This document shows, one piece after another, positions 1,388 to 31,803 of a stretch of 32,000 bases of DNA. The notes beneath the pieces were generated by a model. The model was not told the DNA's origin. It worked only from the letters and a program-made list of their open reading frames with translations, and made no database searches. The stretch is from Candidatus Saccharimonadota bacterium. GTDB lineage: Bacteria > Patescibacteriota > Microgenomatia > UBA1406 > GWC2-37-13. The first letter of the stretch is position 1, and the number at the start of each line of letters is the position of its first letter. Both the position numbers and the translations under genes were made by a program. The stretch is from positions 690,001-722,000 of the forward strand of contig CP066689.1 of the NCBI GenBank assembly GCA_016432445.1, read 5' to 3'.

Positions 1388-2062
1388 ATGAATTTCTTCG
1401 GAGAAAATTTATATAAAAAAGCCAGAAAACTTAACCTTAAAGAATTTGATCAATTCAATAAAGACTACTATAGATTGATCGAGGACTACGATTGGGTAAA
1501 AGTAATAAAAAATTTTAGTGGACCGGAATCCATATATCATAAATTAAGAGAAAAAACCGCGATGGCATATATATCTCTTTTTATCTCGGATAAAAAAAAT
1601 CGAAAAATATTAGATGCAGGATGCGGCACCGGTTTAATCTTAAGACACCTACCCAAAAATTCTGTCGGAATAGACATTAATCCTCGACATATAGAAAAAA
1701 CAAAAAGAAATACTCTGTCTAATAAAATTGTTTTAGGAGATATTGAAAAAACTCCTTTTAAGAAAAATACTTATGATATAGTTGTTTGTTTCGAAACCTT
1801 GGAACATCTTCTTTTTCCTGAAAAAGCTCTCAGTGAATTTAAAAGAATTCTTAAAAAAGGAGGATTGTTCATCGGAAGTGTACCAAGAAAATCTATGCTC
1901 TGGTATCTTCGAGCTTTAAGCAAATCTCATCCTCATAACGAACCTTTTCATCGCGAATTTAGTGAAAAAGAAATTTTCTTACTTGTGTCAAAATCGTTTA
2001 AAATACAAAAGATCAAAAAGGAGATCTTTGGTCTTAACTTTTTTTTTGTTGCTAATGCATAA
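1388..2062 (+). CDS. class I SAM-dependent methyltransferase
   Basis: ORF track. SAM-binding motif I LDAGCGTGLI, plus DIVVCFETLEH and LKKGGLF motifs. Confidence 0.8.
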   Translation: MNFFGENLYKKARKLNLKEFDQFNKDYYRLIEDYDWVKVIKNFSGPESIYHKLREKTAMAYISLFISDKKNRKILDAGCGTGLILRHLPKNSVGIDINPRHIEKTKRNTLSNKIVLGDIEKTPFKKNTYDIVVCFETLEHLLFPEKALSEFKRILKKGGLFIGSVPRKSMLWYLRALSKSHPHNEPFHREFSEKEIFLLVSKSFKIQKIKKEIFGLNFFFVANA

Positions 2063-2096: not shown

Positions 2097-2540
2097 ATGA
2101 AAAATAGACTTAAAGGATTTACTCTTTTGGAACTAATGATCGTAATAGCAATCCTCGGCATTTTAGCATCATTTATATCTGGTAATTTAATCAACTCTCT
2201 TAAAAAAGGCCGGGATGCACGAAGAAAGTCTGATCTTGAACAGATTCAGCGAGCGCTTGAACTTTATTACGAAGATAACAAATCATACCCGGCTTTAATT
2301 ACTGCTGGGTCTCAAATCACTCATCCTTCAGTTGCCAATAAAGTTTATATGCAAAGAGTGCCTGATGATCCGGCTTCTAACAACGACTATACTTATGTCT
2401 CGAGCGGAACTAATTATAAAATCTATTCATGCATTGAAAATACAAATGATAATGGTCCGGGGGTAACAACTTACAGTGTAACTTGCGGCGACTGCGGAAA
2501 CTGCAAATATGGAGTCTCCAGTAGCAATACATTACCTTAG
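2097..2540 (+). CDS. prepilin-type N-terminal cleavage/methylation domain protein (type IV pilin / pseudopilin-like)
   Basis: The internal ATG at 2097 is preferred to the track start at 1962, which overlaps the methyltransferase. MKNRLKG/FTLLELMIVIAILGILA is a class III signal peptide. There is a C-terminal Cys cluster, CGDCGNC. Confidence 0.8.
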   Translation: MKNRLKGFTLLELMIVIAILGILASFISGNLINSLKKGRDARRKSDLEQIQRALELYYEDNKSYPALITAGSQITHPSVANKVYMQRVPDDPASNNDYTYVSSGTNYKIYSCIENTNDNGPGVTTYSVTCGDCGNCKYGVSSSNTLP

Positions 2541-2551
2541 TTCATAAAAAA

Positions 2552-4636
2552 CTATGGCGTTTCTAACTCTTTTTTAGCTTCTTCGTACTGAGGATTAACC
2601 TTTTTTAAGAGGAATTCAAAAATCTTTTTAGCTTCTTCATTTTGGCCGTATTTTTTAAAAAGTTGGCCCTTGAGAAAATACGCATCTTCAAAATTAGGCT
2701 TCAAGTTTATCGCTTCCTCAATTTCTTTCAAAGATTTTTTTTGATAATCATTATTTTTATCTTTAGAATCATCATCAAGTAAAGTGTAATACAAAGCAAT
2801 AGAATAAGGTATCTTTGGATCAGTTGGAGACAGGCGCTTAGCCTGAACTAATGCTTCTATTCCCTTATTTAAATGGTTAGAGTCCACTGTACCTTGATAG
2901 AATAAATACTGATTTTTAGCTCTAGTTTTCCAATATGTAACATTATAAGGAGAAGATTTAATGGATTTTAGGTTATAATAATCAGATAATTTAACTAAAT
3001 TCTTGGCAGTTGCAGCATCTTTCTGGTAATGAGTCACGTAGGAAAGATTAGCTAGATTATAAGATAATTTATCTTCATAAACATGCTCATAATGTAAACC
3101 TAAAGACTGAGAAAGCAAGCTAGAAGCGGTTTTATAATCACCGACTTTATAATATGTCTCGCTTTTTGCATAAACTATATCAGCTATGTAGTATTTGATT
3201 AAAAATGAAAGTATTATAAGAAACACTAATGTAATTAGACCTAATGAAATCGTTTGCTTTTTGTCTTTCTTAAAATTTAGGTTAATAATAATTTTTTTAT
3301 TTCTAGGATAGTTTGTATATAATGCTATTATAATCGCTGGAATTATATAAAAAAATAAATTAATGGTAGTTGTTGAAAAACCTAAAGAATTAGTAATTAA
3401 AATTGAAATATAAGCGCAAAATAAAGAGAGAAAAAGAAGAGAATTATTTTTATCAGATAAAATTCTTTTAAAGAGAAGTAATAAAACTGAAAATATCATT
3501 ATTAAATAAGCTGATAAACCAATATAACCTGTTGTTGCAAAATAATTAAGAAACTCATTATGAGCCTTGTTGTAAAGAAAATCCCATTCAGAGGTTAGAT
3601 TATGCTCAACAGGACGTTTAAAATAGTAAGAATTAGCAAACGTTTCTACCCCAGTCCCAAATAATGGATAACTTTTTCCAATCTCTACTGCTCCTTTCCA
3701 GACAATTTTTCTTATATCAAATGAATCAGTTACAATACTCGTTGAGTATTTATTTTGCACAGAATTAATTGTAGTTTTTGATGAAAAAGAAAAATATTTG
3801 TCAATAGAAGGTTTTCCTGTTTTAAAAAACAAAATCAAAAAAATTAAACCTGTAATCATAATAACACTTTTCTTAATACCTACTCTAAAAGAAATAAATA
3901 TTATTAACGCTATGATTGTAGCCGCTATTGCTGATTGTGAGTGAGTAAAAAAAATAGTTATTAAATTAAGAATGAGATATGAAATGTAAAAAATTTTGTC
4001 TTTGATATTTTTTTTTATTTTTGCCTTATCCTTTTGAAGCAAAAAATATAAACCAATAAAAAAAAGCACTGAGAGATATGCACCAAGCCAGTTAGGCTGA
4101 CCTAAAGTGGAAAATAACCGTTCAGCCGGACGGAACTGATCCGTCCAACAGCTGTTGTTAAAATCTCCGGTAAAAGCTAGGCAAAATAAATCATAACCAA
4201 ATTTGCCAGGTAATCCCAAAATGATAACAAAGACAGAGGAAATTAAGGAAATTTTAAGTAATCTAAAAATGAAGCTTTTATCAAAAACATCAATAAAAAT
4301 ATAAAATAACACAAGATAACTTATTATTGAAAATAATCCGCCATTAAAACGGCCGTAATAACCAAAAAGAGAAGTATGGATATCGATCGAAAAGATAGTC
4401 GATAAAACTTGAGAGACTAAAAATAAAATAATAGGAATATAGAATACATTCTTTTTAAGAATTGCTTTTTTTGTCGTTATCTTATCTGTAAGCCAGATAA
4501 ATACTATAAGCAAAGTGATTAAATAAATAAACATCATCTTATTAAACTCAAAAAGTTCCGAAGTTTTCGAATAAACAATCAATGGAGTCGCAAAAAAAAG
4601 GATATAATATAAAAAGCGAATGATGTTTGTTAACAT
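2552..4636 (-). CDS. O-antigen ligase/polymerase-like (Wzy_C-type) polytopic membrane protein with C-terminal TPR repeats
   Basis: 694 aa. About 12 hydrophobic segments are followed by a soluble tail with TPR-like repeats (AYFLKGQLFKKYGQNEEAKKIFE...). This architecture is common in CPR genomes. Confidence 0.6.
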   Translation of the reverse strand: MLTNIIRFLYYILFFATPLIVYSKTSELFEFNKMMFIYLITLLIVFIWLTDKITTKKAILKKNVFYIPIILFLVSQVLSTIFSIDIHTSLFGYYGRFNGGLFSIISYLVLFYIFIDVFDKSFIFRLLKISLISSVFVIILGLPGKFGYDLFCLAFTGDFNNSCWTDQFRPAERLFSTLGQPNWLGAYLSVLFFIGLYFLLQKDKAKIKKNIKDKIFYISYLILNLITIFFTHSQSAIAATIIALIIFISFRVGIKKSVIMITGLIFLILFFKTGKPSIDKYFSFSSKTTINSVQNKYSTSIVTDSFDIRKIVWKGAVEIGKSYPLFGTGVETFANSYYFKRPVEHNLTSEWDFLYNKAHNEFLNYFATTGYIGLSAYLIMIFSVLLLLFKRILSDKNNSLLFLSLFCAYISILITNSLGFSTTTINLFFYIIPAIIIALYTNYPRNKKIIINLNFKKDKKQTISLGLITLVFLIILSFLIKYYIADIVYAKSETYYKVGDYKTASSLLSQSLGLHYEHVYEDKLSYNLANLSYVTHYQKDAATAKNLVKLSDYYNLKSIKSSPYNVTYWKTRAKNQYLFYQGTVDSNHLNKGIEALVQAKRLSPTDPKIPYSIALYYTLLDDDSKDKNNDYQKKSLKEIEEAINLKPNFEDAYFLKGQLFKKYGQNEEAKKIFEFLLKKVNPQYEEAKKELETP

Positions 4637-4637
4637 A

Positions 4638-4711
4638 GTTATGAGTTGTGGGTTGTGAGTTTTGGGTTTAACTCATAACTCAGAACCCATAACCCAGAAC
4701 TCTAAACTCTT
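4638..4711. repeat. phased heptamer hairpin spacer (GTTNTGR x5 then NCANAAC x5)
   Basis: Reads GTTATGA GTTGTGG GTTGTGA GTTTTGG GTTTAAC TCATAAC TCAGAAC CCATAAC CCAGAAC TCTAAAC in an unbroken 7-nt phase. It fills the whole divergent spacer between the start at 4636 (-) and the mreB ATG at 4712. Confidence 0.85.
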
Positions 4712-5773
4712 ATGCTTAATTTTATAGAAATTTTTAAAAAAATCCAAATTCCTTTTTTTTCCTCATTAAGTGTATATTTTGACTTAGGTACATCAAATAC
4801 GCGCATAGGTATTAAAGATAAAGGAATAGTTTTAAGAGAACCTACTTATCTTGGGTATAACACAAGAATAAAAGAGTATATTTTTTTTGGCAAAGAAGCC
4901 AAAACGATAATTGGTAAAACTCCAAACTTCATTCATATAATTCAACCTTTAGTTAACGGTATTCTTTCCGATTTTGACGCCCAGGTAGCTTTAATTGAGT
5001 ATTTTACAAAAAAATCGGTCTATCCTTATTTCTCTCAAACGCGATTTCTTAAACCTACGCTCAAAGCCTTCTCTGTAATTCCTTCTATTGCAACTGAGAT
5101 CGAGCAAAAAGCTGTTGAGGAAGCTCTGGAAAAAGCCGGATGTTCTTCTGTTTATTTAGTTGAAAAACCCTTAGCTGTAACAGCTGGATGCGGATTTGAT
5201 ATTTTTTCTCATCAGCCTCATTTTATTGTAGATCTGGGTGGAGGATTAATTGAACTAAGTATTGTTTCAGGTGGCGGCATAGTGATTCAAAAAACATTAA
5301 AAACCGCCGGCGAACATATGAATAAATTAATCGCTAATTACTCTTACCTTAAACATGGTATTATTCTTGGCGATAAAACCTGTGAAGATTTAAAAATTAG
5401 CTTGCTTCATTTTGAAGGTGAAGAAAAAACAATCATGGTCCGAGGAAAATCTTTAGAAACCGGTCTACCTAAATCAGTAAGAATGAAAACTGCTGACATC
5501 AAAGAAGCTTTACTTACTTCATTTAACTCAATTACTGACTCGATAAAAGAGCTCATTGAACTTTCCCCTCCAGAAATAGCTGATGAAGTATTCAAGAATG
5601 GTATCACTTTAACCGGAGGAATAGCTTCAGCTAATGGCCTTGACAATTTTTTTTCACAGGAACTAAAAATTCCAGTTGTGATTGCTGATCATTATATAGA
5701 TGCCACTCTAAACGGCCTTATTGCTATCGACAAAAACCAAGATCAGTTTTTTAAATTGTTTGGATATAAGTAA
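4712..5773 (+). CDS. mreB: rod shape-determining actin-like protein MreB
   Basis: 353 aa. Actin-fold phosphate and adenosine motifs DLGTSNTRIG, VDLGGGLIELSIV and LTGGIASANGL. Confidence 0.85.
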   Translation: MLNFIEIFKKIQIPFFSSLSVYFDLGTSNTRIGIKDKGIVLREPTYLGYNTRIKEYIFFGKEAKTIIGKTPNFIHIIQPLVNGILSDFDAQVALIEYFTKKSVYPYFSQTRFLKPTLKAFSVIPSIATEIEQKAVEEALEKAGCSSVYLVEKPLAVTAGCGFDIFSHQPHFIVDLGGGLIELSIVSGGGIVIQKTLKTAGEHMNKLIANYSYLKHGIILGDKTCEDLKISLLHFEGEEKTIMVRGKSLETGLPKSVRMKTADIKEALLTSFNSITDSIKELIELSPPEIADEVFKNGITLTGGIASANGLDNFFSQELKIPVVIADHYIDATLNGLIAIDKNQDQFFKLFGYK

Positions 5774-5859
5774 GTTATGAGTTAAGGGTTGCGGATTGAG
5801 AATAATGAGCCAATACAATAGAATACAGTTTTACGCTTGTATTTATAACTTAATTGGGG

Positions 5860-5888
5860 TTGATTTCTTACAGATATTCTTATAGAAT
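5860..5888 (+). promoter_or_regulatory. candidate sigma70-type promoter upstream of 16S rRNA (TTGATT-17-TAGAAT)
   Basis: TTGATT at 5860-5865, a 17-nt spacer, then TAGAAT at 5883-5888. A second TTGACA at 5949 lacks a good -10 element. Confidence 0.3.
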
Positions 5889-5990
5889 ATAAATTCACTT
5901 CATAAAAGTGTTTATCCCTCCGAAGCTTCATGCGAAGGGGGACGTACATTGACAACTCGTGGTTTAAGTGAGTCTAGTTTAGTCTAGTAG

Positions 5991-6007
5991 TCGGGTTAGG
6001 TCCCCCC
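5991..6007 (+). promoter_or_regulatory. 5' strand of 16S precursor processing stem
   Basis: TCGGGTTAGGTCCCC is complementary to GGGGATCCTAACCCGA at 7634-7649, so the pair brackets the 16S gene. This is a classic RNase III-type stem arrangement. Confidence 0.6.
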
Positions 6008-6031
6008 GATCTAATCGGGGAGGGTCCTGAT

Positions 6032-7548
6032 TTTTTTAAGAGTTTGATCCTGGCTCAGGATGAACGCTAGCGGTGTGCCTGAGATATGCAAGTCGAGCGT
6101 CCCCGCCGCAAGGCGGGGTAGTGGCGGACGGCTGAGTAATATATAGGAACCTGCCTTTTTCTGGAGGATAGCCCCGCGAAAGCGGGGGTAATACTTCATG
6201 GTCCAGATACCATCTGGTACCTGGTAAAGGACGTAACTGTCCGGAAAAAGATGGGCCTATATTCTATCAGGTAGTTGGTAGGGTAATGGCCTACCAAGCC
6301 TATGACGGATAGCTGGTTTGAGAGGACGACCAGCCAGAGGGGGACTGAGACACGGCCCCCACTCCTACGGGAGGCAGCAATCAGGAATAGTCGGCAATGG
6401 GCGAAAGCCTGACCGCGCGACACCGCGTGCGGGATGAAGGTCTAAACGATCGTAAACCGCTGTGGTAGGGGAAGAAGTAGGCCATTGGCCTATTGACGGT
6501 ACCCTACTAGAAAGGAGCCGCTAACTGCGTGCCAGAAGCGTCGGTAATACGTGGGCTTCAAGCGTTATCCGGTTTTACTGGGCGTAAAAGGTCGTGTAGG
6601 CGGTTTGATAAGTTATCTCTTAAATTTTCTCGCTCAACGAGAAGCTTGGAGATAATACTATCAAACTTGAGTTTTCTTAAGGGAGACTGGAACTGAGGGA
6701 GGAGTAGTGAAATGCGTTGATACCCTCGGGAACACCAGTGGCGAAGGCGAGTCTCTGGAAGGAAACTGACGCTGAGACACGAAAGCTAGGGGAGCGAAGC
6801 AGATTAGAGACCTGCGTAGTCCTAGCCCTAAACGAATGCCTGCTGGCTGCATGGTTTCCCGACTTTGTCGAGGATTTCGTGTGGCGAAGGTAACCCGTTA
6901 AGCAGGCCGCCTGGGGAGTACGACCGCAAGGTTAAAACTCAAAGGAATTGGCGGGGAGGCACACAACCAGTGGAACATGTGGTTCAATTCGATACGAACC
7001 GAAGAACCTCACCAGGGCTTGAAATCCAAGCGTCCTATCCCGAGGAAACTCGGGAAATTCGCAAGAAGGTTTGGACAGGTACTGCATGGCTGTCGTCAGT
7101 TCGTTCCGTGAGGAGTGCCCTTAAGTGGGACAACGAACGCAACCCCTATCTTGTGTTAAATTTGTCACAAGAGACTGCCCCGCCTATGGCGGGGAGGAAG
7201 GAGGGGCAGACGTCAAGTCAGCATGGTCCTTATGCCCTGGGCTACACACATGTTACAATGAATAAAACAACGGGCTTTGCAAACGCGCAAGTGTAAGCAA
7301 ATCCCTTAAATTTATTCTCAGTGGGGATTGAGGTCTGCAACTCGACCTCATGAACGCGGAATTGGTAGTAATCGCGGATCAGCTATGCCGCGGTGAATAC
7401 GTTCTTGCCTCTTGCACACACCGCCCGTCAAGCCAACAAAGTCGGTGGCATTTGAACCCCGCTCAGCGGGGGAGAATTTCATCGGCGATGAGGGTTAAGT
7501 CGTAACAAGGTATCCGTTCTGGAAGGAGCGGATGGATCACCTCCTTTC
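6032..7548 (+). rRNA. rrs: 16S ribosomal RNA (about 1.5 kb, no large insertion)
   Basis: AGAGTTTGATCCTGGCTCAG at 6039. ACTCCTACGGGAGGCAGCA is present. CACACCGCCCGTCA is present. AAGTCGTAACAAGGTATCC...GGATCACCTCCTTTCT ends near 7548. The ends are approximate to a few nt. Confidence 0.95.
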
Positions 7549-7633
7549 TTTTTTTTTAAAAAGAAAAAAATCGTTTTTGAGCGAGACGATTCATAAAATT
7601 CGTTCAAAGTGAAACTTTAGGAATCCGCCTGTT

Positions 7634-7649
7634 GGGGATCCTAACCCGA
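7634..7649 (+). promoter_or_regulatory. 3' strand of 16S precursor processing stem
   Basis: Complementary to 5991-6007 (see that feature). Confidence 0.6.
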
Positions 7650-7684
7650 TTATTGGTCTAAAACTAACTCATAAAAATAAAGAA

Positions 7685-8926
7685 TTAAAAACCAAGCAGT
7701 TTTCCAAAACCTCCAAGCAAAGCAGCAATAGTAATTGCTACACCTGATACTATTAATAGTATATTTTGTACTTTATTATTTTTATAACTTCCCATCAGTT
7801 CTTCACTGTTGGCTAATTTGTATAAAAAGAAGAAAATCACAGGCAACATAAGTCCATTCAAAAAGTCCGCATAAAGAGTAATATTAAACAAAGATATATT
7901 AGGAAACCAAATAAATATCGTTCCTAAAATAATCTGCAGAAGAAAAAAACCATAAAAGAATTTACTTTTATCCAAACTTGTATCAAGACTTCCTTCATAA
8001 CCAAAAAACTCCGAAAAAGCATAAGCGGTAGCCAAGGGAACTATTGCTAAACCCAAAAAACCAGCAATTAAAAGTCCTACACCAAAAAACGTACTAGCTA
8101 ATGCACCAGCCACAGGCTTAATAGCAAGTGCCGCATCTGCCGCTCCAGTAATTTGAATACCGTTAACAAAAATTGTTGCTATAACAGCAACCATCATAAA
8201 CAAAGAAAACAGGTCTGTTAGAAATGCACCTGCATAAATTTCTAACCGCTGGTACTTGAGTTTTTCAGGAGTAATCTTTTTATCTTTAATATAACTATTG
8301 ATAAAAAATTGTCCCCAGGCCGTAACAGTTGTTCCAAGAACAGCAACTGAGGTATAAAGATAATCAAATGATATTCCGTCTGGAGGTCTCAAAAGTGATC
8401 TTCCAGTAAGGGCCCAATCAGGCTTGGACAAGAGTGCGGAAAAGAAGTAGGCAAGATAAAAGAGTATTAAAAAGAGAAAAAATCTTTCAATTTTAGTGAA
8501 AGATGATCTAATAATGAATAAAAATAAGAATCCAACAAGCAAAGGCAAAAATATACGGTAATCAAGCTGAAATAAGGTTAACGCTGATTTTAAACCTCCA
8601 AGGTTTTGCAAAATAACTCCAAAATTCACGATAAACAAAAGTAAAAACATAAACAAAGCTATTCTTATTCCATATTTCTCGCGTATCAAATCACCTAAAC
8701 CTTTGCCAGTTACAACTGCAATTCTGGCACCAATTTCCTGAGTAATCATAAGAACTATTGTTATTGGTATTAACGTAGTCAGCATTGAGTATCCAAACTT
8801 AGAAGCAGCAACCGAATAAGTTGCAACACCTCCAGCATCATTATCGGCAAACGCAGTAATCAAACCCGGACCGACAACAGCTATTAGAATTAGAAAACGC
8901 CTTTTGAAATGATAAAAAAAATTCAT
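7685..8926 (-). CDS. Nramp/SLC11-related transporter with non-canonical metal-site motifs (NRMT-like, possible Mg2+ transporter)
   Basis: 413 aa, polytopic. It aligns without gaps to MntH TM1 (GPGLITAFADNDAGGVAT against GPAVIASIAYMDPGNFAT) and TM6 (GTTVTAWGQ against GATVMPHVI). DPGN is therefore replaced by DAGG, and MPH by TAW. Confidence 0.75.
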   Translation of the reverse strand: MNFFYHFKRRFLILIAVVGPGLITAFADNDAGGVATYSVAASKFGYSMLTTLIPITIVLMITQEIGARIAVVTGKGLGDLIREKYGIRIALFMFLLLFIVNFGVILQNLGGLKSALTLFQLDYRIFLPLLVGFLFLFIIRSSFTKIERFFLFLILFYLAYFFSALLSKPDWALTGRSLLRPPDGISFDYLYTSVAVLGTTVTAWGQFFINSYIKDKKITPEKLKYQRLEIYAGAFLTDLFSLFMMVAVIATIFVNGIQITGAADAALAIKPVAGALASTFFGVGLLIAGFLGLAIVPLATAYAFSEFFGYEGSLDTSLDKSKFFYGFFLLQIILGTIFIWFPNISLFNITLYADFLNGLMLPVIFFFLYKLANSEELMGSYKNNKVQNILLIVSGVAITIAALLGGFGKLLGF

Positions 8927-25668: not shown

Positions 25669-27339
25669 TTAAATTTGTATAACATCCACAACTATCAAAG
25701 GCTTACGTCCTTTTTCCTGATAAAAAAACTTCTCCAAGTACCCCTCAACATCTTTTTTTATAATCCCCAAATCAATAATGTGTTCTTTCCTCGGCTTTAA
25801 CACTTTTTCAACCAACCGCGCGGCTTTCTCAAATAACTCTTCCTCAGCCTTTTCAAAAACAAATCCTCTTGATACAATATTTGGTCGGGCAAGCAACCTT
25901 CCATTGCTATCAACCATAATTAAAGCCACCACAATTCCCTCTGAAGAAAGAGTTTTTCTATCTCTTAAAACCATATTCCCAACATCACCAACTCCATAAG
26001 CATCAACATATATGGTTTTTGTCTCGAGCTCATCTCCCTTATAGGCATTATTACGGGTAAACCAAACAGTCTCACCAATCTCAAGTGTAAAAACATTTTC
26101 TTTAGGGTATCCTAACTCTCCGACAAGTTTTTGATATTGAAGCTGATGTCTTAGTGTTCCGCCAATAGGAATAAAATATCTTGGTTTGGTAAACCTGATT
26201 AAAAATTTTAAATCATCCTGATTTCCATGACCTGATGCATGAAGTTCATCATGAATATCGGAATAAATGACTTCAGCTCCTTGCAAAGATAGCTCCTCTA
26301 TCACATTATAAACCTCATTTTCATTTCCCGGGATTGGGTCCGATGAGAAGATCACCTTGTCACCTGGTTTTATTTTTACATTTTTGTTTTTATTATTAGC
26401 CAGTTTTGATAAAGCTGACTCATACTGGCCCTGAGATCCAGCCACAATCAAACAAACCTTGTTGGGAGGCAGACGCCTAACGTCTTCTTCTTTGGCAGTA
26501 AGAGCATTAGGAATTGGAAGATAGCCAATCTCTGCAGAAAGTCTGGTGTTTTCCCTCATTGACCTTCCTAAAAATACAATTTTACGGTTGAATTTGATTG
26601 CAGCGTCAACGCATTGTCTAATTCTTGAGATATTAGAAGAAAAGGTAGTCATAATAAATTTTCCTTTTGTTTTTCTCATCTCATCCTCAAAAACTTGGCC
26701 GACAATAGCTTCTGACAAAGTTAGACCTTCGCGCTCTGAACCTAATGAATCAGAAAATAAACATAAAATACCTTCATTCCCTGCTTTTGTTATTCCATAA
26801 AAATCAGGCGGAGGTCCAAAAGGAGGAGTCAGATCCATCTTAAAATCAGTACCGTGATAAAGATTTCCAACTGGAGTTTTGATTACCACGTGCATTGTAT
26901 CTGGTATCGAGTGAGTTACAGGAAGAAAATTGAGTTTAAAATCACCAAACTGATACACCTCCCCATACTTAACTTCAGTGACGTTAACGGGTTGATTAAA
27001 TTCTTTAAATTTGTTTTCAATAAAAGCGGCAGTCAGTTTACTTGTATAAACCGGCGGCTTTCCTAACTCAAGATAATGAAAAGGCAAAGCCGAAATATGA
27101 TCTTCATGGCCGTGAGTTAAAACAACTGCCCGGATTTTATCAATCTTATCTTTAAGATAGGTAATATCTGGAATGACAAAATCAACTCCCAGTTCTTTTT
27201 CATGAGGAAAACCAATACCGCAGTCAATAATGAGTATGTCTTTTAAAACCTCGTTTTCATAGATCTCATACACATACATATTCTTGGTAACACCAACAAT
27301 ACCTCCCAAAGCCACAAACCTTACTTTATATTTATCCAT
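25669..27339 (-). CDS. rnj: ribonuclease J
   Basis: 556 aa. Metallo-beta-lactamase motif VLTHGHEDHISALP, a beta-CASP region (HASGHG) and a C-terminal domain. Confidence 0.9.
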   Translation of the reverse strand: MDKYKVRFVALGGIVGVTKNMYVYEIYENEVLKDILIIDCGIGFPHEKELGVDFVIPDITYLKDKIDKIRAVVLTHGHEDHISALPFHYLELGKPPVYTSKLTAAFIENKFKEFNQPVNVTEVKYGEVYQFGDFKLNFLPVTHSIPDTMHVVIKTPVGNLYHGTDFKMDLTPPFGPPPDFYGITKAGNEGILCLFSDSLGSEREGLTLSEAIVGQVFEDEMRKTKGKFIMTTFSSNISRIRQCVDAAIKFNRKIVFLGRSMRENTRLSAEIGYLPIPNALTAKEEDVRRLPPNKVCLIVAGSQGQYESALSKLANNKNKNVKIKPGDKVIFSSDPIPGNENEVYNVIEELSLQGAEVIYSDIHDELHASGHGNQDDLKFLIRFTKPRYFIPIGGTLRHQLQYQKLVGELGYPKENVFTLEIGETVWFTRNNAYKGDELETKTIYVDAYGVGDVGNMVLRDRKTLSSEGIVVALIMVDSNGRLLARPNIVSRGFVFEKAEEELFEKAARLVEKVLKPRKEHIIDLGIIKKDVEGYLEKFFYQEKGRKPLIVVDVIQI

Positions 27340-27581
27340 GTTTTAATTATATACCACACCTCTTTAATTTTCTCAGGCATTGCTTTCAAATGCTCAATTA
27401 AAGTAATTAAAGTGAGGATGAACTAGAAAAAGCATTCTTATTTTTATCGCACTTTTACAAAACGGGAAAGCTAATTCATCCAGCTAGGTTACATATCAAA
27501 ATTTTACGTATGTGCGCTTAATGGGTGAATAAAGTGTATGTGCGATCAGGATAGATAACTTCAAAAGAAAGGAAAAGAGAC

Positions 27582-27743
27582 ATGCCCGTATATGACGATA
27601 GGACAGTACCTACTCAACCGGCAGGTTGCACTTGCAAGGGTCTTGGCACTTGCCCATACTGCAGGTCAACAAGAATCCGGCCACTAGGTCAACGACCCAT
27701 CGGAGATAAGCCAACGCCACCTGGCCGGCGAATCGTCTGCTAA
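27582..27743 (+). CDS. small Cys-rich protein (53 aa), cassette 0
   Basis: Below the size cutoff of the track. SD GAAAGGAAAAGAG sits 2 nt before the ATG. Sequence MPVYDDRTVPTQPAGCTCKGLGTCPYCRSTRIRPLGQRPIGDKPTPPGRRIVC. Codon composition is G+C-rich, unlike the host genes. Confidence 0.55.
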   Translation: MPVYDDRTVPTQPAGCTCKGLGTCPYCRSTRIRPLGQRPIGDKPTPPGRRIVC

Positions 27744-27818
27744 AGTAACGCAAACCGCTGAGACTTGAGAGAAATCACCCACTCTTAAGTCTTTTGCGGC
27801 AAAAGGAAAGGATGCAAT

Positions 27819-27986
27819 ATGACACCAGTTCTAGCAACAACGCTAAACTATGCAGTTAACACATTCTACATCTTGGTAGCCATCATTGTTGCCGCTATCG
27901 CCCTTGCTTTCATCATTGTAGCAGGATACCTCTTTTGCGTAATCATCCTCCTGGATGAACTGGGTATACTGCGCTTTGGAGACTAG
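27819..27986 (+). CDS. small hydrophobic protein (55 aa, TM segment plus acidic tail), cassette 0
   Basis: SD AAAGGAAAGGA before the ATG. Sequence MTPVLATTLNYAVNTFYILVAIIVAAIALAFIIVAGYLFCVIILLDELGILRFGD. Confidence 0.55.
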   Translation: MTPVLATTLNYAVNTFYILVAIIVAAIALAFIIVAGYLFCVIILLDELGILRFGD

Positions 27987-27990
27987 ACTG

Positions 27991-28076
27991 TACTTTCCCG
28001 TACATACGGCGGATTTGGTGAGATTGGTCCAACGTGACCCATGCTCTGCATGTAAAAAATCTTAACCAAATCCGCC
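27991..28076 (+). other. conserved three-way-junction element E1 (end of cassette 0)
   Basis: ACTTTCCCG lead-in. The 18-bp closing stem pairs GGCGGATTTGGTGAGATT with AATCTTAACCAAATCCGCC. Inner hairpins are GGTC-CAACGT-GACC and CATGC-TCT-GCATG. Homologous to E2 and E3. Confidence 0.65.
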
Positions 28077-28350
28077 GCCTCAATTCTCTCACATAACTAA
28101 TTTATTCATTAAAAGATATTTTGATCTACTATGAGCTATTGATTTTAAAAATTTAAAAGATTAATATCAGCACAATATGGAGAGGTTATCTTCAAAAAGG
28201 GTCTTTTTTGCATCCTTGGCTAGAGAGTCTCTCCTTTTTTTGTGCCTTTAATTATGCTCTAAAAGCATAGAGCCTAAACTAAAAGGCGCACTTTAATAAA
28301 AAGGGAAAGTCAAATCGCCCGCCCAAAAATAACAGGGGAAAAGAGAAAAT

Positions 28351-28416
28351 AAATCCAAATGTCAAAATTCAAATTTCAAAATTTTATTTGACATTTGTCA
28401 TTTGAACTTTGGATTT
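28351..28416. repeat. phased heptamer hairpin spacer, CAAAT family
   Basis: TCCAAAT GTCAAAA TTCAAAT TTCAAAA TTTTATT TGACATT TGTCATT TGAACTT TGGATTT. Confidence 0.8.
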
Positions 28417-28428
28417 CGTTTGTTTTCT

Positions 28429-28531
28429 TCTTGTCCCTGTTATCGGATAACTTAAGAAAAAGATACCGGATGTATCTTTAACTACCCCTAAAGTAGTTTG
28501 CAAGTTATGGGATGGACGATAAAGGGGACTT
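28429..28531 (+). promoter_or_regulatory. structured 5' leader of cassette A (conserved with cassette B)
   Basis: GTCCCTGTTATCG (28433-28445) pairs with CGATAAAGGGGAC (28517-28529). ATAACTT pairs with AAGTTAT. Two inner hairpins are AGATA...TATCT and AACTAC...GTAGTT. The leader ends 25 nt before the ATG. Confidence 0.5.
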
Positions 28532-28555
28532 GATGACCGGGTATGAGGAGGCCAT

Positions 28556-28897
28556 ATGAACTTAATAAGAGCAATTGTAGTCATTGTTGGCTACTACTTG
28601 CTGTCACTGGCAATAGTCAACTGGTTTGGCAATAGCGCTTGGTTGTTGTTCGTCGTACCCGCCGCAGCCTTAGTTGCTGTCTACTGGGTAGCAACGCAAA
28701 AGCGCGTCTTGAGTACATCTCAGGTAGTGCTTTATGCTATTGGCGCGTGGGTTGTGTCTGCAATAGTAAACGCAATGCTTCCTGAACAGTCCAACGTCTG
28801 GATGCTAATCGTGGCTGTCGCGGTCGCATTAGTTTACGAACTTTCCATCCGACAAGAGACATCCTCACCACGATCCACTGGATGGCAAACACGCTAG
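28556..28897 (+). CDS. 4-TM small membrane protein (113 aa), cassette A; paralog of 30047-30370
   Basis: ORF track. SD GAGGAGG. VIVGYYLLSLAIVNWFGNSAWLLF...ALVYELSIRQ aligns with VAIGYYLVSVGIVYLLNSNAWWLL...AFVYEKSVIR. Confidence 0.7.
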   Translation: MNLIRAIVVIVGYYLLSLAIVNWFGNSAWLLFVVPAAALVAVYWVATQKRVLSTSQVVLYAIGAWVVSAIVNAMLPEQSNVWMLIVAVAVALVYELSIRQETSSPRSTGWQTR

Positions 28898-28962
28898 TAG
28901 AAACAGAACGTTAGGATTACACCCCTCCTTACGAACTGTAATTCAGCCATGAAAGGAACAAA

Positions 28963-29097
28963 ATGAGCGCGGAACCAATCTTCGAAGCCTTCTTTTGGTG
29001 GATTGGAGGTTTCATCATCACATTCTTCGGAGCCGCCGCGATAGGCGCAACCACCTGGTTCATTCGGCTACTTCGCCATTTAAAGGAGGTTGTGTAA
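28963..29097 (+). CDS. small hydrophobic protein (44 aa), cassette A
   Basis: SD GAAAGGAAC. Sequence MSAEPIFEAFFWWIGGFIITFFGAAAIGATTWFIRLLRHLKEVV. Confidence 0.5.
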   Translation: MSAEPIFEAFFWWIGGFIITFFGAAAIGATTWFIRLLRHLKEVV

Positions 29098-29158
29098 CTT
29101 GAGATCGTAACCCCCCGTGCGAAGTTTACCTCGATGAAGACAGAAAGGAGAAGCATAA

Positions 29159-29335
29159 ATGCCTGTTTTATTTGTTGACATCCCTGACGACAAGGTTGCA
29201 GAATTTGTTAGACGCTACATGGAAGCTTTGCATAACAAACACGGCGTTCATTTCACAGCCACAATGACTAATGTCGCCAACGCCCCTCTTTTCCCAGATC
29301 GTTTACCAGCAGACAAGGCCGCCACGATTGTCTAA
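29159..29335 (+). CDS. small soluble protein (58 aa), cassette A
   Basis: SD GAAAGGAGAAGC. Sequence MPVLFVDIPDDKVAEFVRRYMEALHNKHGVHFTATMTNVANAPLFPDRLPADKAATIV. Confidence 0.5.
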   Translation: MPVLFVDIPDDKVAEFVRRYMEALHNKHGVHFTATMTNVANAPLFPDRLPADKAATIV

Positions 29336-29347
29336 ACGACTACTCCA

Positions 29348-29439
29348 GACTTTCCCGCGCTTGCGTCGGGTTTTATTAGGTTTGATTGCGCCCTGCAGTC
29401 AACATGCACCCGCATGTACAACCGAAATAAACCCGACGC
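29348..29439 (+). other. conserved three-way-junction element E2 (end of cassette A)
   Basis: ACTTTCCCGCGCTT lead-in. The closing stem pairs GCGTCGGGTTTTATT with AAATAAACCCGACGC. Inner hairpins are GATTGC-GCCCT-GCAGTC and CATGC-ACCC-GCATG. Confidence 0.65.
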
Positions 29440-29463
29440 TTCCACTTCCTCTAAAATAATAAC

Positions 29464-29472
29464 TGCTATAAT
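29464..29472 (+). promoter_or_regulatory. extended -10 element TGCTATAAT, 7 nt before the ATG (possible leaderless transcript)
   Basis: TGCTATAAT-TTAGGTC-ATG(29480). There is no SD. Confidence 0.35.
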
Positions 29473-29479
29473 TTAGGTC

Positions 29480-29785
29480 ATGAAAATCTCTGCCAAAAAA
29501 GTTAAGGAAACGCTTCTTGAGGTTATTGATCCTGAGCTTAATGTTTCCATAGTTGATCTTGGACTAATTTATAAAATAAATGTCAGTAAAGAAAATAAAG
29601 TTAAAATAACTATGACGCTTACTTCCATAGGCTGTCCTCTTTTTCCCCAGATTGAAGATGATATAAAAACTAAACTTAAAAAATTAGGAATAAAAGAAAA
29701 AGATATTGCTATTGAACTTACTTTTGACCCTCCCTGGTCTATAGAAAAAATGTCTGAAACTGCTAAAGCTATTCTTGGAATTTGA
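29480..29785 (+). CDS. DUF59 / MIP18-family (SufT/PaaD-like) Fe-S cluster assembly-associated protein
   Basis: 101 aa. Contains LLEVIDPELNVSIVDLGLIY...TLTSIGCPL. Composition is AT-rich and host-like. Confidence 0.7.
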   Translation: MKISAKKVKETLLEVIDPELNVSIVDLGLIYKINVSKENKVKITMTLTSIGCPLFPQIEDDIKTKLKKLGIKEKDIAIELTFDPPWSIEKMSETAKAILGI

Positions 29786-29950
29786 TTTTTACATATAAAG
29801 AGTACTATAATCTGCTTCAATTCAGAGAAAATAAGTCTTAAGCATGGCTTATGTGTTCTCACGCACCATAACAACGCGCGAAAAGTTTACATAAAATCAT
29901 TCTCACCAAATTGATGACAGGGATAAAAAGGAAATAATTTTTTATTTTTT

Positions 29951-30016
29951 TCTTGTCCCGGTCATCATCAACTTGGCTTAAAAACCCATGTTGGGTGGAA
30001 TGATGATAAGGACAAT
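29951..30016 (+). promoter_or_regulatory. structured 5' leader of cassette B (conserved with cassette A)
   Basis: TTGTCC..T.ATCATC (29953-29969) pairs with GATGAT.A.GGACAA (30002-30015). The 5' strand TTCTTGTCCCNGTNATC is shared with cassette A, and the 3' strand carries compensating differences. Confidence 0.5.
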
Positions 30017-30046
30017 GATGGAATTTCAGTGAATAAGGAGGACAAC

Positions 30047-30370
30047 GTGAAAAAAAACACTATCTTCGTTGCTATTGGATACTATTTGGTGTCTGTAGGT
30101 ATAGTATACCTACTCAATAGCAACGCATGGTGGCTACTGGCTCTTTCATCAGCTCTACTTGGGTTCATCTATTGGCTTTTCACCTTCGAAACATACGAAG
30201 CCAATATCGTCTTGTGCGTCCTAACCGGTTCCTGCATATCTATTGGAGGAGACATCATAGCACACAATCTATCATTCCTCATATTGCTAGCTGTGTGTCC
30301 TATCACTGCCTTCGTGTACGAGAAATCTGTCATACGAGCAGTACCTCCTCCCCAAAACTCGCCGTGTTAA
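30047..30370 (+). CDS. 4-TM small membrane protein (107 aa from GTG 30047), cassette B; paralog of 28556-28897
   Basis: SD AAGGAGG lies 5 nt before the GTG at 30047. Alignment to the cassette A paralog favours this start over the track start at 30029. Confidence 0.7.
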   Translation: MKKNTIFVAIGYYLVSVGIVYLLNSNAWWLLALSSALLGFIYWLFTFETYEANIVLCVLTGSCISIGGDIIAHNLSFLILLAVCPITAFVYEKSVIRAVPPPQNSPC

Positions 30371-30441
30371 ATAACTTGCAGAAAGTGAGAAGTCCACCCT
30401 TCTAACCGACTGCTAATCAAACTGATTGAAAGGAGAAGCAG

Positions 30442-30594
30442 ATGAAATCAATCCTGGTCAATGTGGTAGCATGCCTTATCCTCGCGGGCTTTGTCGCTTT
30501 AGGCATCTTCCTGTTCATAATTTCACCGGCCATTTTGGCGATAATGGCTCTGCTGGATATCGAGGTCGTACCCGAAGAACTATTTGAGACATAG
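30442..30594 (+). CDS. small hydrophobic protein (50 aa, TM plus acidic tail), cassette B
   Basis: SD GAAAGGAGAAGC. Sequence MKSILVNVVACLILAGFVALGIFLFIISPAILAIMALLDIEVVPEELFET. The ...LLD-acidic tail resembles the one in 27819-27986. Confidence 0.55.
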   Translation: MKSILVNVVACLILAGFVALGIFLFIISPAILAIMALLDIEVVPEELFET

Positions 30595-30604
30595 GAGGAA
30601 CGAA

Positions 30605-30742
30605 ATGGTACAACGCTGGAAGGATGTCATGTCCTGGTCGATCTTCTTTGGAATGCTTGACACCTTTTCTCACCGTTGTTCATCATTGGGAGAATACGCC
30701 AAATCTTCAATGAACCATTCAACCCGTAAAGGAGAAAAATGA
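30605..30742 (+). CDS. small protein (45 aa), cassette B
   Basis: SD TAGGAGGAA. Sequence MVQRWKDVMSWSIFFGMLDTFSHRCSSLGEYAKSSMNHSTRKGEK. Its stop overlaps the next start (ATGA at 30739). Confidence 0.4.
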   Translation: MVQRWKDVMSWSIFFGMLDTFSHRCSSLGEYAKSSMNHSTRKGEK

Positions 30743-31068
30743 AAAGACCATTAGACCTAGAAGAAAAACCCCAGCGACAAAGGCTACTGGAAAGGTCTCA
30801 AGATTGGCTTGACCAATATATGGCCCCGGCTACCTTTGTCCTCGCATCTATTGGGCTATTACTAATCAGCGTCCTACTGTTTAAACTGGAGCTATTTGTC
30901 TCTCTGCTCGGCAGCATCTGCGCGGGTCTTGTAATTGCGGTGATTGTATCCGTGCTTCAGTTCTACTCCGGTTATCTGAGAGAAAAGTTCAGCTTTCTCA
31001 GAAAATTGGAAGCGCTGGTTCCTCGACGATGGAAATTCTCTAGAAAAGAGCTCAACTCGGATTGGTAA
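30739..31068 (+). CDS. 2-TM membrane protein (109 aa), cassette B
   Basis: ORF track. SD AAAGGAGAAAA. Translationally coupled to the preceding ORF. Confidence 0.6.
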   Translation: MKRPLDLEEKPQRQRLLERSQDWLDQYMAPATFVLASIGLLLISVLLFKLELFVSLLGSICAGLVIAVIVSVLQFYSGYLREKFSFLRKLEALVPRRWKFSRKELNSDW

Positions 31069-31076
31069 TTTACTTG

Positions 31077-31176
31077 CAACTTTTCGCGCCTCGTGCCGGG
31101 TTAGTTTTAGATTAGACTGCTCTCCCGCAGTCTTCATGCCACCCACGGCATGATCAATCTCTAATTAACTCGGCAC
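31077..31176 (+). other. conserved three-way-junction element E3 (end of cassette B)
   Basis: ACTTTTCGCGCCTC lead-in. The closing stem pairs GTGCCGGGTTAGTT...AGATT with AATCT...AATTAACTCGGCAC. Inner hairpins are GACTGC-TCTCCC-GCAGTC and CATGCC-ACCCAC-GGCATG. Confidence 0.65.
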
Positions 31177-31184
31177 TCATTCTC

Positions 31185-31290
31185 GATCTTAGATTTTAGA
31201 TGTTTGATCTTTGATTGATTGAAATGAAAACTAATTTGTTCTAATCTTATATCTAAGATCAAAGATCTAAGATCGAAGATCTTACTTAAT
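31185..31290. repeat. phased heptamer hairpin spacer (GATNTTN / AAGATCN)
   Basis: GATCTTA GATTTTA GATGTTT GATCTTT ... AAGATCA AAGATCT AAGATCG AAGATCT, running up to the ATG at 31291. Confidence 0.85.
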
Positions 31291-31803
31291 ATGGCTAAAG
31301 GACAGTTTTGGGATGATACATTTGAAAAATTAGCCGAACTTGGCGCCTCAACCGCAAAAAAAACCGGCCAGGCCGTAACCAAAACCTTCAATCCTTTACA
31401 GGCATTTGAACCGGCCGCACCAATACCTACTCCTGAAGAACAACAAAAACTTAATGAAGGAATGAAAAATAAAGACAACCACAGTAAGCTGGACTTTGAA
31501 AAACTTCAAAAAAAATATCAATATCAAGATGAACAAAAGGAAGATGCTTTAAGACAAAGATTATTTCAGCTTGTAAAAAACGACGAAAAAGAAGCTGTTG
31601 AACGCAATAAACAAGAGAAGGAGCAAAAAGAAAAGCAGGAACTCCAGGAACAGGAAGAAAAAAAGAAAAAACAGCAGGAAAGAATACAACAGGAACAATC
31701 AGCCGAAACTCCAAGAGGAAAAGAACGGAAAAGCATTTTCTCCAAGAAAAAACAAGCTCAAAAAGAACATGCCGAATATAAACCCTCTTCAGGAAAGCAA
31801 TAA
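31291..31803 (+). CDS. Lys/Glu/Gln-rich low-complexity protein, function unknown
   Basis: ORF track, 170 aa. Composition is AT-rich and host-like. Confidence 0.55.
   Translation: MAKGQFWDDTFEKLAELGASTAKKTGQAVTKTFNPLQAFEPAAPIPTPEEQQKLNEGMKNKDNHSKLDFEKLQKKYQYQDEQKEDALRQRLFQLVKNDEKEAVERNKQEKEQKEKQELQEQEEKKKKQQERIQQEQSAETPRGKERKSIFSKKKQAQKEHAEYKPSSGKQ

Follow-up and report, generated by a model that had tools for sequence, protein, structure and literature searches.

What kind of structure closes a small, foreign-looking gene cluster in a genome of the Candidate Phyla Radiation (CPR), and in which molecule would it form? The question is raised by a stretch of 32,000 nucleotides (contig CP066689.1 of assembly GCA_016432445.1, positions 690,001 to 722,000, forward strand), referred to here as the window, with positions counted from its first letter. 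The window is a low-GC stretch (35.5% GC) of a Candidatus Roizmanbacteria genome (CPR, Microgenomates). It contains three islands of 45–53% GC (about 27448–28092, 28287–29460 and 29862–31190), each with two to four small plus-strand open reading frames (ORFs) whose Shine–Dalgarno (SD) sites are purine-rich and mostly of the strong AGGAG type. We call these islands cassettes C1, C2 and C3, and the branched elements at their 3′ ends E1, E2 and E3. An original prediction, made from the sequence alone, had proposed that these elements are a selected RNA or single-stranded DNA structure that terminates each cassette.

We found that a two-part end structure, consisting of a 5′ box complementary to a lead-in just past the last stop codon and of a GC-rich stem beside that lead-in, frames foreign orphan cassettes with unrelated cargo in several Roizmanbacteria (CPR) genomes, five in number. 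The best explanation has each element close the 3′ side of a small-gene cassette that is self-contained and was horizontally acquired. The original prediction had included neither the partner 5′ box, nor the fact that the cargo is orphan and foreign in composition, nor the presence/absence polymorphism at the insertion site. CPR genomes are tiny, and how they acquire genes is little understood; here, cassettes have been gained and lost at a single intergenic site among close relatives.

Both ends of the cassettes carry covarying helices

The three elements lie where the original prediction had placed them (Table 1) and, as it had claimed, start shortly after a stop codon: the lead-ins of E1, E2 and E3 begin 5, 13 and 10 nt past the stop codons at 27986, 29335 and 31068, respectively. 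The long closing stem enclosing two hairpins is likewise borne out by folding energies on the plus strand (RNAfold: −40.3 kcal/mol and z = −7.3 for E1, −38.5 kcal/mol and z = −5.7 for E2, −46.3 kcal/mol and z = −8.0 for E3), where the z-scores are relative to dinucleotide shuffles and 0 of 200 shuffles folded as well. The CATGC-loop-GCATG hairpin occurs exactly three times in the 32 kb, compared to an expectation of 0.03, and the pattern ACTTTYC-N11-CGGRTT is matched without mismatch only at E1–E3. No further copy of the motif was found elsewhere in the window.

A repeat search of the window turned up an inverted partner for each lead-in, 0.5–1.2 kb away on the upstream side of its cassette. 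When aligned, the partners form a 5′ box, CGCAC-N10-12-(G/C)G(G/C)GAAA(A)G, which begins at 27448, 28287 and 29862. Its core, GGAAAG, is complementary to the lead-in, (A)CTTTCC(C/G). The conserved lead-in is therefore present at all three elements as predicted, but it is one arm of a long-range helix and not a mere prefix of the stem. In about 265 kb of Roizmanbacteria sequence, both strands counted, a regular expression for the box matched cassette starts only.

To find relatives we used synteny, locating orthologues of the neighbouring RNase J gene (74–79% identity) and reading their surroundings. Cassettes of the same design lie between RNase J and an iron–sulphur (FeS) assembly gene at loci L043/L044, L046, L047/L048 and L080, all from Candidatus Roizmanbacteria. 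They have a 5′ box (CGCACCTTGACAATGTGCGGAAAGT in L043 and GGCACTTTTACAATTGGGCGGAAAT in L080), small ORFs with GAAAGGAGGTGA-type ribosome-binding sites, a stop codon and a lead-in complementary to their own box (ACTTTCCGCGCAT in L043, CTTTCCGCACA in L046, ATTTCCGCCC in L080 and CCTTTCC...TCCGCC in L047), after which come a 9–12 nt spacer, a long GC-rich stem and a pyrimidine-rich tail. In all seven copies, the element stands 4–17 nt past the last stop codon in a fixed orientation relative to the ORFs. The stem's interior is more variable. The predicted three-way junction holds for E1–E3 and also for L080, but it is not a trait of the whole family: it is expanded in L046, has a weak first hairpin in L043 and is replaced by a simple long hairpin in L047. 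A descriptor of lead-in plus stem recovered all seven elements, together with about ten chance matches, from 80 retrieved loci; a covariance model built from the seven copies and run over 177 kb returned the known 3′ elements and nothing else.

The base of the closing stem aligns in all seven copies as the 9-bp helix 5′-C-G-Y-N-G-G-R-Y-T / A-R-Y-Y-C-N-R-C-G-3′. All 63 of its 63 cells are standard pairs, and six of the nine pairs have changed on both sides. Its covariation is 0.646, compared to 0.268 ± 0.054 in shuffles (0 of 500 as high), a control that ignores relatedness among seven distinct copies from only five related genomes; E2, L046 and L080 have most of the stem base in common (identical between E2 and L046, nearly identical in L080). 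When the partner strand was slid by one to three columns, pairing fell to 26–49% and no compensatory pairs remained, a comparison that is inflated because the MAFFT alignment and the structure were drawn from the same sequences.

The box and lead-in covary as well. Compared to C1 and C2, the box of C3 has changed from GGGAAAG to GCGAAAAG and its lead-in from CTTTCCC to CTTTTCGC; L080 carries a compensatory pair in the core itself (GGAAAT/ATTTCC), and further compensatory changes occur at positions −1 to −4 beside the core. The duplexes between each box and its own lead-in have energies of −15 to −23 kcal/mol. In the 7 × 7 matrix of box/lead-in duplex energies, the true matching was equalled or beaten by 2 of 5040 permutations, itself among them (2 of 720 in a six-cassette version). 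Both helices exist and covary, and it is established that base pairing of the conserved elements at both cassette ends is under selection. The original prediction had staked itself on more copies and on covariation; both are present, the copies in relatives and the covariation across seven copies from five genomes, and a selected structure at the end of each cassette is upheld.

Because the compensatory changes in box and lead-in occur even within one genome, they argue for nucleic-acid pairing and against two sites for one protein. They bear on a quite improbable alternative in which the stem is an atypical terminator, either intrinsic or assisted by a factor, and shields the host promoter downstream of it, while the box is a promoter or operator and the inverted sites are bound by a single DNA-binding regulator. 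Several features would suit it: the GC-rich stem lies directly past the last ORF, the FeS gene's TATAAT follows the stem by about 20–25 nt, the tails of L046 (CTCTTTTTTC) and L047 (TCATTTTTCTC) are T-rich and the box centre resembles TTGACA. However, compensatory changes that separate C3 from C1 and C2 do not fit sites for a single protein, and a −10 hexamer lies at the right distance from the box in only about three of the seven cassettes. The tails also fit poorly. As the original prediction had stated, E1–E3 have pyrimidine-rich tails without a U tract, and a scan for canonical intrinsic terminators (a GC-rich hairpin with at least 5 T in 8 nt) called none there. The first 10 nt past the stem hold 5, 4 and 4 T in E1–E3, 5 in L043, 6 in L046, 7 in L047 and 2 in L080, so that five of the seven tails (2–5 T; AACACCTTCA in L080) have no usable U tract. 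The same genome does use U-tract terminators, as the hairpin at 28180–28247 with its run of seven T indicates.

The inverted arrangement of box and lead-in could also be read as an inverton, whose invertase would flip the ORF block relative to an outside promoter and make small membrane proteins phase-variable. The ORF block is indeed flanked by inverted repeats of 9–15 bp with a cassette-specific sequence, C3 and L080 each have a promoter beyond the left repeat, and recombination within the repeats would keep both arms identical. Yet all strain contigs, from eight samples, have the same orientation, there is no invertase nearby, and repeats that differ among cassettes of one genome would be hard for a single invertase to tolerate. 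The conserved branched stem outside the repeat would have no explanation. We consider this reading very improbable.

The cassettes are foreign modular units

In the GC content of third codon positions (GC3), the cassette ORFs stand well apart from host genes (0.44–0.60 compared to 0.19–0.31). C1, whose ORFs have purine-rich SD-like (AAGGA-type) ribosome-binding sites, ranges from 0.44 to 0.48 and C2 from 0.46 to 0.60. No cassette protein was assigned to a Pfam, PHROGs or PADLOC family. Among 5.8 billion clusters and 1.8 billion representatives, the C2 113-aa ORF, a profile of the C2 and C3 113-aa proteins and a 98-aa ORF from L047 retrieved only themselves, and blastn against phages returned nothing. 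The two 113-aa proteins are 28% identical, which is the only protein relationship across cassettes. Most of the small ORFs encode membrane proteins, and at least one hydrophobic ORF of 44–70 aa is encoded by six of the seven cassettes, beside one to three others. The cargo is compositionally foreign, orphan and, apart from the 113-aa pair, unrelated between cassettes.

The intergenic site between RNase J and the FeS gene is filled in L043, L046, L047 and L080 and empty (24–151 nt) in L049, L050, L051–L060, L061 and L064. Eight relatives have sequence spanning the site of C3, between the FeS gene and a conserved 170-aa gene, and none of them has a cassette there. L047, with a different cassette, has the same host flank as C2, AACTGCTATAAT, which places the right border of C2 no more than 21 nt past the stem. 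A promoter module, TTGATTTT...GAGTACTATAAT, is found in near-identical form only upstream of C3 and of the L080 cassette (L080 2191–2225, minus strand), and its 12-mer GAGTACTATAAT has no other occurrence in the window or the 80 retrieved loci. The shared module sits at two different loci in two species, and the promoter may travel with the cassette. That the cassettes are foreign modular units, gained, lost and duplicated, is established.

Such units could be moved by their own ends. In this explanation, the main rival and a rather unlikely one, both cassette ends would together form a structure-specific, single-stranded DNA recombination site, following a logic like that of integron attC sites. 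A circularized cassette would join its tail to its 5′ box, with the lead-in/GGAAAG pairing as an outer helix and the closing stem and hairpins as an inner one, creating a site of about 150–200 nt, and a recombinase encoded elsewhere would insert the cassettes into intergenic hot spots. The compositional islands, the unrelated orphan cargo and the pattern of filled and empty sites all agree with it. So does the coincidence of the conserved elements with the borders of foreign DNA and the near-perfect Watson–Crick pairing of the stems. In integrated integron cassettes, the 5′ end is complementary to the start of the cassette's own attC, whose terminal structure varies and is sometimes branched (PMC2727003); our cassettes resemble them in both respects. 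They further share with attC a sequence-variable imperfect palindrome past the stop codon of small, mostly orphan, foreign ORFs in a fixed orientation, and the elements' length (70–110 nt compared to 57–141 for attC), position and structural conservation fit as well, although the cassettes have long leaders and promoter-like sites where an attC follows a promoterless ORF.

Two short "empty" hairpins with the same GAAAGT/ACTTTC core also count towards this explanation. An unoccupied RNase J–FeS site in L051 (about 3950–3985, minus strand) carries TGAAAGTAA-N11-TTACTTTCA, and in L080 (about 2140–2185, minus strand) a degenerate box, CGCAC-N11-GCGGGATAAG, with CTTTCC 2 nt on, precedes the real box. 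The hairpins may mark landing sites or scars of excision, or may have arisen by chance.

On the other side, the R″/R′ core sites are absent at every element. Neither strand matched a regular expression for a RYYYAAC...GTTRRRY pair in or around E1–E3, no element contained GTTRRRY, and the stem base (5′-...GGRYT / ARYYC...-3′) has the opposite polarity to AAC/GTT; canonical attC sites were rejected on this ground. Neither IntI nor another integrase or recombinase was found in the 32-kb window, and no tyrosine recombinase or integrase domain was detected in its scanned ORFs. In contrast to integron arrays, the cassettes are not contiguous, since the host FeS gene lies between C2 and C3. Leaders of 45–246 nt with apparent promoters of their own are unlike promoterless integron cassettes, and while the 3′ end of an integron cassette contains the whole attC site, the partner sequence of an integrated cassette here is 0.5–1.2 kb distant. 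There is no common junction core and no consistent flanking direct repeat; the longest, of 5–9 nt, are reached by 3–98% of shuffles. Eight Logan contigs of the strain with an identical FeS protein were all alike, with no circular contig, alternative context or inverted arrangement among them.

The broader proposal is that these cassettes belong to an undescribed CPR gene-cassette system, in which orphan cassettes are captured and moved through a structure-specific site formed by both ends (GGAAAG of the box, CTTTCC of the lead-in and the branched stem), functionally analogous to attC without attC cores or IntI. We regard it as unlikely. In a variant, an RNA intermediate may carry the cassettes, with its ends set by that same pairing.

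Pairing in mRNA or in DNA

The reading that we tentatively favour, as a possibility somewhat short of an even chance, places the pairing in the message: mRNA end-pairing together with a protective or terminating 3′ structure, in mobile, moron-like cassettes. A cassette begins with a predicted upstream promoter, the box CGCAC-N10-12-GGAAAG and an optional purine/pyrimidine leader hairpin, and continues with two to four small ORFs with strong SD sites, the stop codon, CTTTCC, a 9–12 nt spacer, the GC-rich branched stem and the pyrimidine-rich tail. In the sense transcript, GGAAAG in the 5′ untranslated region (UTR) would pair with CUUUCC just past the last stop codon and clamp the ends of the message, with the adjacent branched stem as its 3′-terminal structure. 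Both structures could shield the mRNA's ends from a 5′ exonuclease (RNase J) and from 3′ exonucleases, and/or could keep a message for small, potentially toxic membrane proteins inactive until processing. Pairing of the 5′ and 3′ ends plays this part in type I toxin mRNAs. The branched stem may double as a weak terminator with a poor U tract.

Pairing between the ends of a type I toxin mRNA is familiar from hok/sok, where it involves the tac and fbi (translational activator and fold-back inhibition) elements. Type I toxin mRNAs, which encode small hydrophobic peptides, offer a precedent for long-distance pairing of 5′ and 3′ ends (PMC5416894, PMC6733600). As in those of hok/sok and of Helicobacter aapA1/IsoA1, a short helix connects the 5′ UTR with the stretch just before a 3′-terminal stem-loop, the pairing is backed by covariation, small hydrophobic peptides are encoded and the loci are multi-copy and horizontally spread. 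The cassettes differ from them in being multi-gene units of 0.6–1.3 kb, one without a hydrophobic ORF, in having a large branched 3′ stem, in their CPR host and in showing no Rfam or sequence similarity. A type I locus would combine a single hydrophobic toxin ORF of at most 60 aa with an overlapping antisense RNA; no antisense RNA gene was identified here, with sequence tools that do not detect antisense RNAs. The covarying helix between 5′ UTR and 3′ end is present as nucleic-acid pairing; that it forms in RNA we infer.

Several observations favour RNA: the fixed orientation and stop-codon distance, the sense-strand wobbles, the pyrimidine-rich loops and tails, the upstream promoters and the toxin-mRNA precedent. 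The wobble pairs in the two conserved helices, closing stem and box/lead-in, are G–U on the sense strand, and on that strand the loops as well as the tails are pyrimidine-rich. Sigma-70-like promoters upstream of the box mean that the box can lie inside the transcript. DNA is favoured by the elements' position at the borders, by their Watson–Crick, strand-symmetric stems, by the integron-like logic and by the "empty" hairpins in L051 and L080.

Some of our data weigh against pairing in mRNA. The stems are almost purely Watson–Crick (about 4% G–U) with G–U pairs rare on either strand, and the antisense strand folds about equally well, so that folding energy cannot tell the strand or the molecule; DNA palindromes would be expected to give such stems just as much as RNA would. 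Like mobility sites, the conserved elements mark the borders of foreign DNA. At its A/T-rich centre, the box looks like a −35 hexamer (TTGACA in L043, TTTACA in C1), and a −10-like hexamer follows it by 17–18 nt in C3 and L043; if this were the promoter, GGAAAG would lie in its spacer and would not be transcribed. A consistent sigma-70 promoter inside the box was rejected, since a rightly spaced −10 hexamer is found in only about three of seven cassettes. The L047 cassette encodes no hydrophobic protein. Finally, full-length minimum free energy folds hold the end-pairing in seven of seven cassettes, but host-gene controls often pair their ends too, and this check is therefore non-discriminating and is not counted as evidence.

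In the reading that we tentatively favour, the box would be transcribed, and the pairing would occur in RNA rather than in single-stranded DNA and would have a stabilizing or silencing role. The original prediction had offered three roles, namely a 3′ UTR stabilizer or processing site, a recombination site and a non-canonical terminator; all three stay hypotheses, of which the first two lead. If the RNA-level account is true, the cassettes carry a portable mRNA stability or silencing module and a new bacterial case of end-pairing outside toxin–antitoxin loci. If the DNA-level account is true, they represent a new structure-specific system of cassette recombination. Either way, the signature of box plus stem is a search handle for cassettes across CPR genomes.

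Comparison with other elements and wider searches

Phage morons are autonomous promoter-gene-terminator modules of deviant composition. The cassettes resemble them as self-contained units with a promoter, a 3′ stem-loop, deviant GC content and cargo of unknown function, placed between resident genes. They differ in lying in the chromosome between housekeeping genes and not in a prophage, and in a 3′ stem without a U tract. Their conserved, mutually complementary framing elements are not known from morons. Rho-independent terminators and stabilizing stem-loops of the repetitive extragenic palindrome (REP) and bacterial interspersed mosaic element (BIME) kind likewise place a GC-rich stem past an ORF, where it could block 3′ exonucleases or terminate transcription. 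In contrast, most copies here lack a U tract, and the structure is branched, 70–110 nt long, conserved at the stem base and coupled to a 5′ box.

A miniature inverted-repeat transposable element or insertion-sequence-type element was rejected, because the right repeat (the lead-in) is internal to stem and tail and neither target-site duplications nor att-type direct repeats were found. Hammerhead, twister and hatchet ribozymes, group I and II introns, tRNA-like structures and retron msr/msd were rejected by eye, with no core motifs and no Rfam match. In a search of the window with Rfam release 15, only rRNA and tRNA passed the gathering score; at E ≤ 10, the region 27300–31400 gave only sub-threshold noise of miRNA type on AT-rich hairpins, and L080 and L043 gave nothing significant. 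No described RNA family or recombination site matches the end structure.

We also scanned wider collections with the strict pattern ACTTTYC-N11-CGGRTT-N-CATGC-N-GCATG, which is too specific to the window's copies, the relatives' stem sequences being different. It had no matches in viral contigs, 11 in GTDB genomes and 28 in JGI metagenomes, all of which proved on inspection to be chance. Five of the genome matches and many of the metagenome matches are one planctomycete sequence, the C-terminus of ATP synthase subunit c with an intergenic hairpin, and the remainder include enterococcal or acidobacterial coding sequence. The planctomycete atpE 3′ end (...ALFAVVAGFLNFK*) with a conserved branched hairpin before atpF is seen in L004, L007, L010, L012, L013 and many metagenome loci (L016–L035); it is a false positive for the family, yet a conserved structure in its own right. 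The closing stem of E2 and L046 had no matches in viral sequences. The box pattern had 11 viral matches, eight of them one conserved phage sequence, and none was followed downstream by a matching lead-in and then a stem.

Features, leaders and neighbouring sequences

Table 1. Positions of the cassette features and of the RNase J gene in the window
Feature	Position	Strand	Details
RNase J gene	25669–27339	−	
C1 5′ box	27448–27470	+	CGCAC-TTTTACAAAA-CGGGAAAG; ACGGGAAAG pairs with the lead-in at 27992–28000 (CTTTCCCGT)
C1 cargo	27582–27986	+	ORFs 27582–27743 (53 aa, Cys-rich) and 27819–27986 (55 aa, hydrophobic)
E1 lead-in	27992–28000	+	ACTTTCCCG; 3′ arm of the long-range helix
E1 three-way junction	28007–28077	+	Closing stem CGGCGGATTTGG.../...CCAAATCCGCCG; hairpins GGTC/GACC and CATGC/GCATG
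E1 pyrimidine-rich tail	28078–28092	+	CCTCAATTCTCTCAC
C2 5′ box	28287–28309	+	CGCAC-TTTAATAAAA-AGGGAAAG(TC); GGGAAAGTC pairs with GACTTTCCC at 29348–29356
C2 leader hairpin	28329–28443	+	AT-rich; purine-rich 5′ arm, pyrimidine-rich 3′ arm
C2 cargo	28556–29335	+	113-aa membrane ORF 28556–28897, 44-aa hydrophobic ORF 28963–29097, 58-aa ORF 29159–29335
E2 lead-in	29349–29357	+	ACTTTCCCG
E2 three-way junction	29363–29439	+	Closing stem GCGTCGGGTTT/AAACCCGACGC; hairpins GATTGC/GCAGTC and CATGC/GCATG
E2 pyrimidine-rich tail	29440–29460	+	Host sequence AACTGCTATAAT (−10 region of the FeS gene) resumes at 29461
Sigma-70-like promoter upstream of C3	29782–29811	+	TTGATT-18-TATAAT
C3 5′ box	29862–29885	+	CGCAC-CATAACAA-CGCGCGAAAAG; with TT at 29886–29887, CGCGCGAAAAGTT pairs with AACTTTTCGCGC(C)
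C3 leader hairpin	29912–29970	+	AT-rich; 3′ arm 85% identical to that of C2
C3 cargo	30029–31068	+	113-aa membrane ORF 30029–30370, 50-aa ORF 30442–30594, 45-aa ORF 30605–30742, 109-aa ORF 30739–31068
E3 lead-in	31079–31090	+	ACTTTTCGCGCC
E3 three-way junction	31093–31176	+	Closing stem GTGCCGGGTTAGTT/AATTAACTCGGCAC; hairpins GACTGC/GCAGTC and CATGCC/GGCATG
E3 pyrimidine-rich tail	31177–31190	+	TCATTCTCGATCTT

Leader hairpins homologous to that of C2 are found in C3 and, on the minus strand, in L043 (about 1790–1850), L047 (about 7600–7655) and L080 (about 2020–2085). Their 5′ arms read AGGG-A-AAAAGGAGA-like and their 3′ arms TCTCTTCC...CCCT. This purine/pyrimidine hairpin is present in four of seven cassettes, is less clear in L080 and is absent from C1 and L046. 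The centre of the C2 palindrome (window 28387) is the exact break point of several Logan contigs of the strain. Between C1 and C2, at 28180–28247, lies a hairpin like a canonical terminator (GGAGAGG...CTCTCC, then TTTTTTT). A clear homologue precedes the L043 cassette (about 1965–2035, minus strand), and the hairpin could be a small RNA gene or a leader terminator.

Besides the cassettes, the window contains a 16S rRNA gene (6032–7547), three tRNA genes and housekeeping genes; the cassettes' neighbours identified by synteny are housekeeping genes. The 16S rRNA terminates in GATCACCTCCTTTCT (7535–7550), and extended SD sites (GAAAGGAGGTGA, GAAAGGAGAAGCA) precede many cassette ORFs, for example at 29143–29155 and 30428–30440. 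The lead-in's CUUUCC is similar to the final bases of the 16S tail (CCUUUCU), so that the ribosome is, in principle, another possible pairing partner for GGAAAG of the box.

The leader of the conserved 170-aa gene (31183–31282) carries a low-complexity tandem/inverted repeat hairpin. Hairpins also occur in this leader at L043 (640–700, minus strand) and L046 (575–640, minus strand), with equivalents in L049, L051, L064 and L080. The repeats differ in each genome (gatcttagat..., catgttacatg..., gttaacgagctaacg..., gttagttcg...), with the structure kept and the sequence unrelated. Elsewhere, a large serine recombinase and a MerR-like gene adjoin a 179-aa gene in L049 (6794–8742), and in L046 an island with a Fic-domain gene (4266–8273) lies between RecR and phosphoribosyl pyrophosphate synthetase. 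The neighbourhood of the cassettes appears to be a general insertion hot spot.

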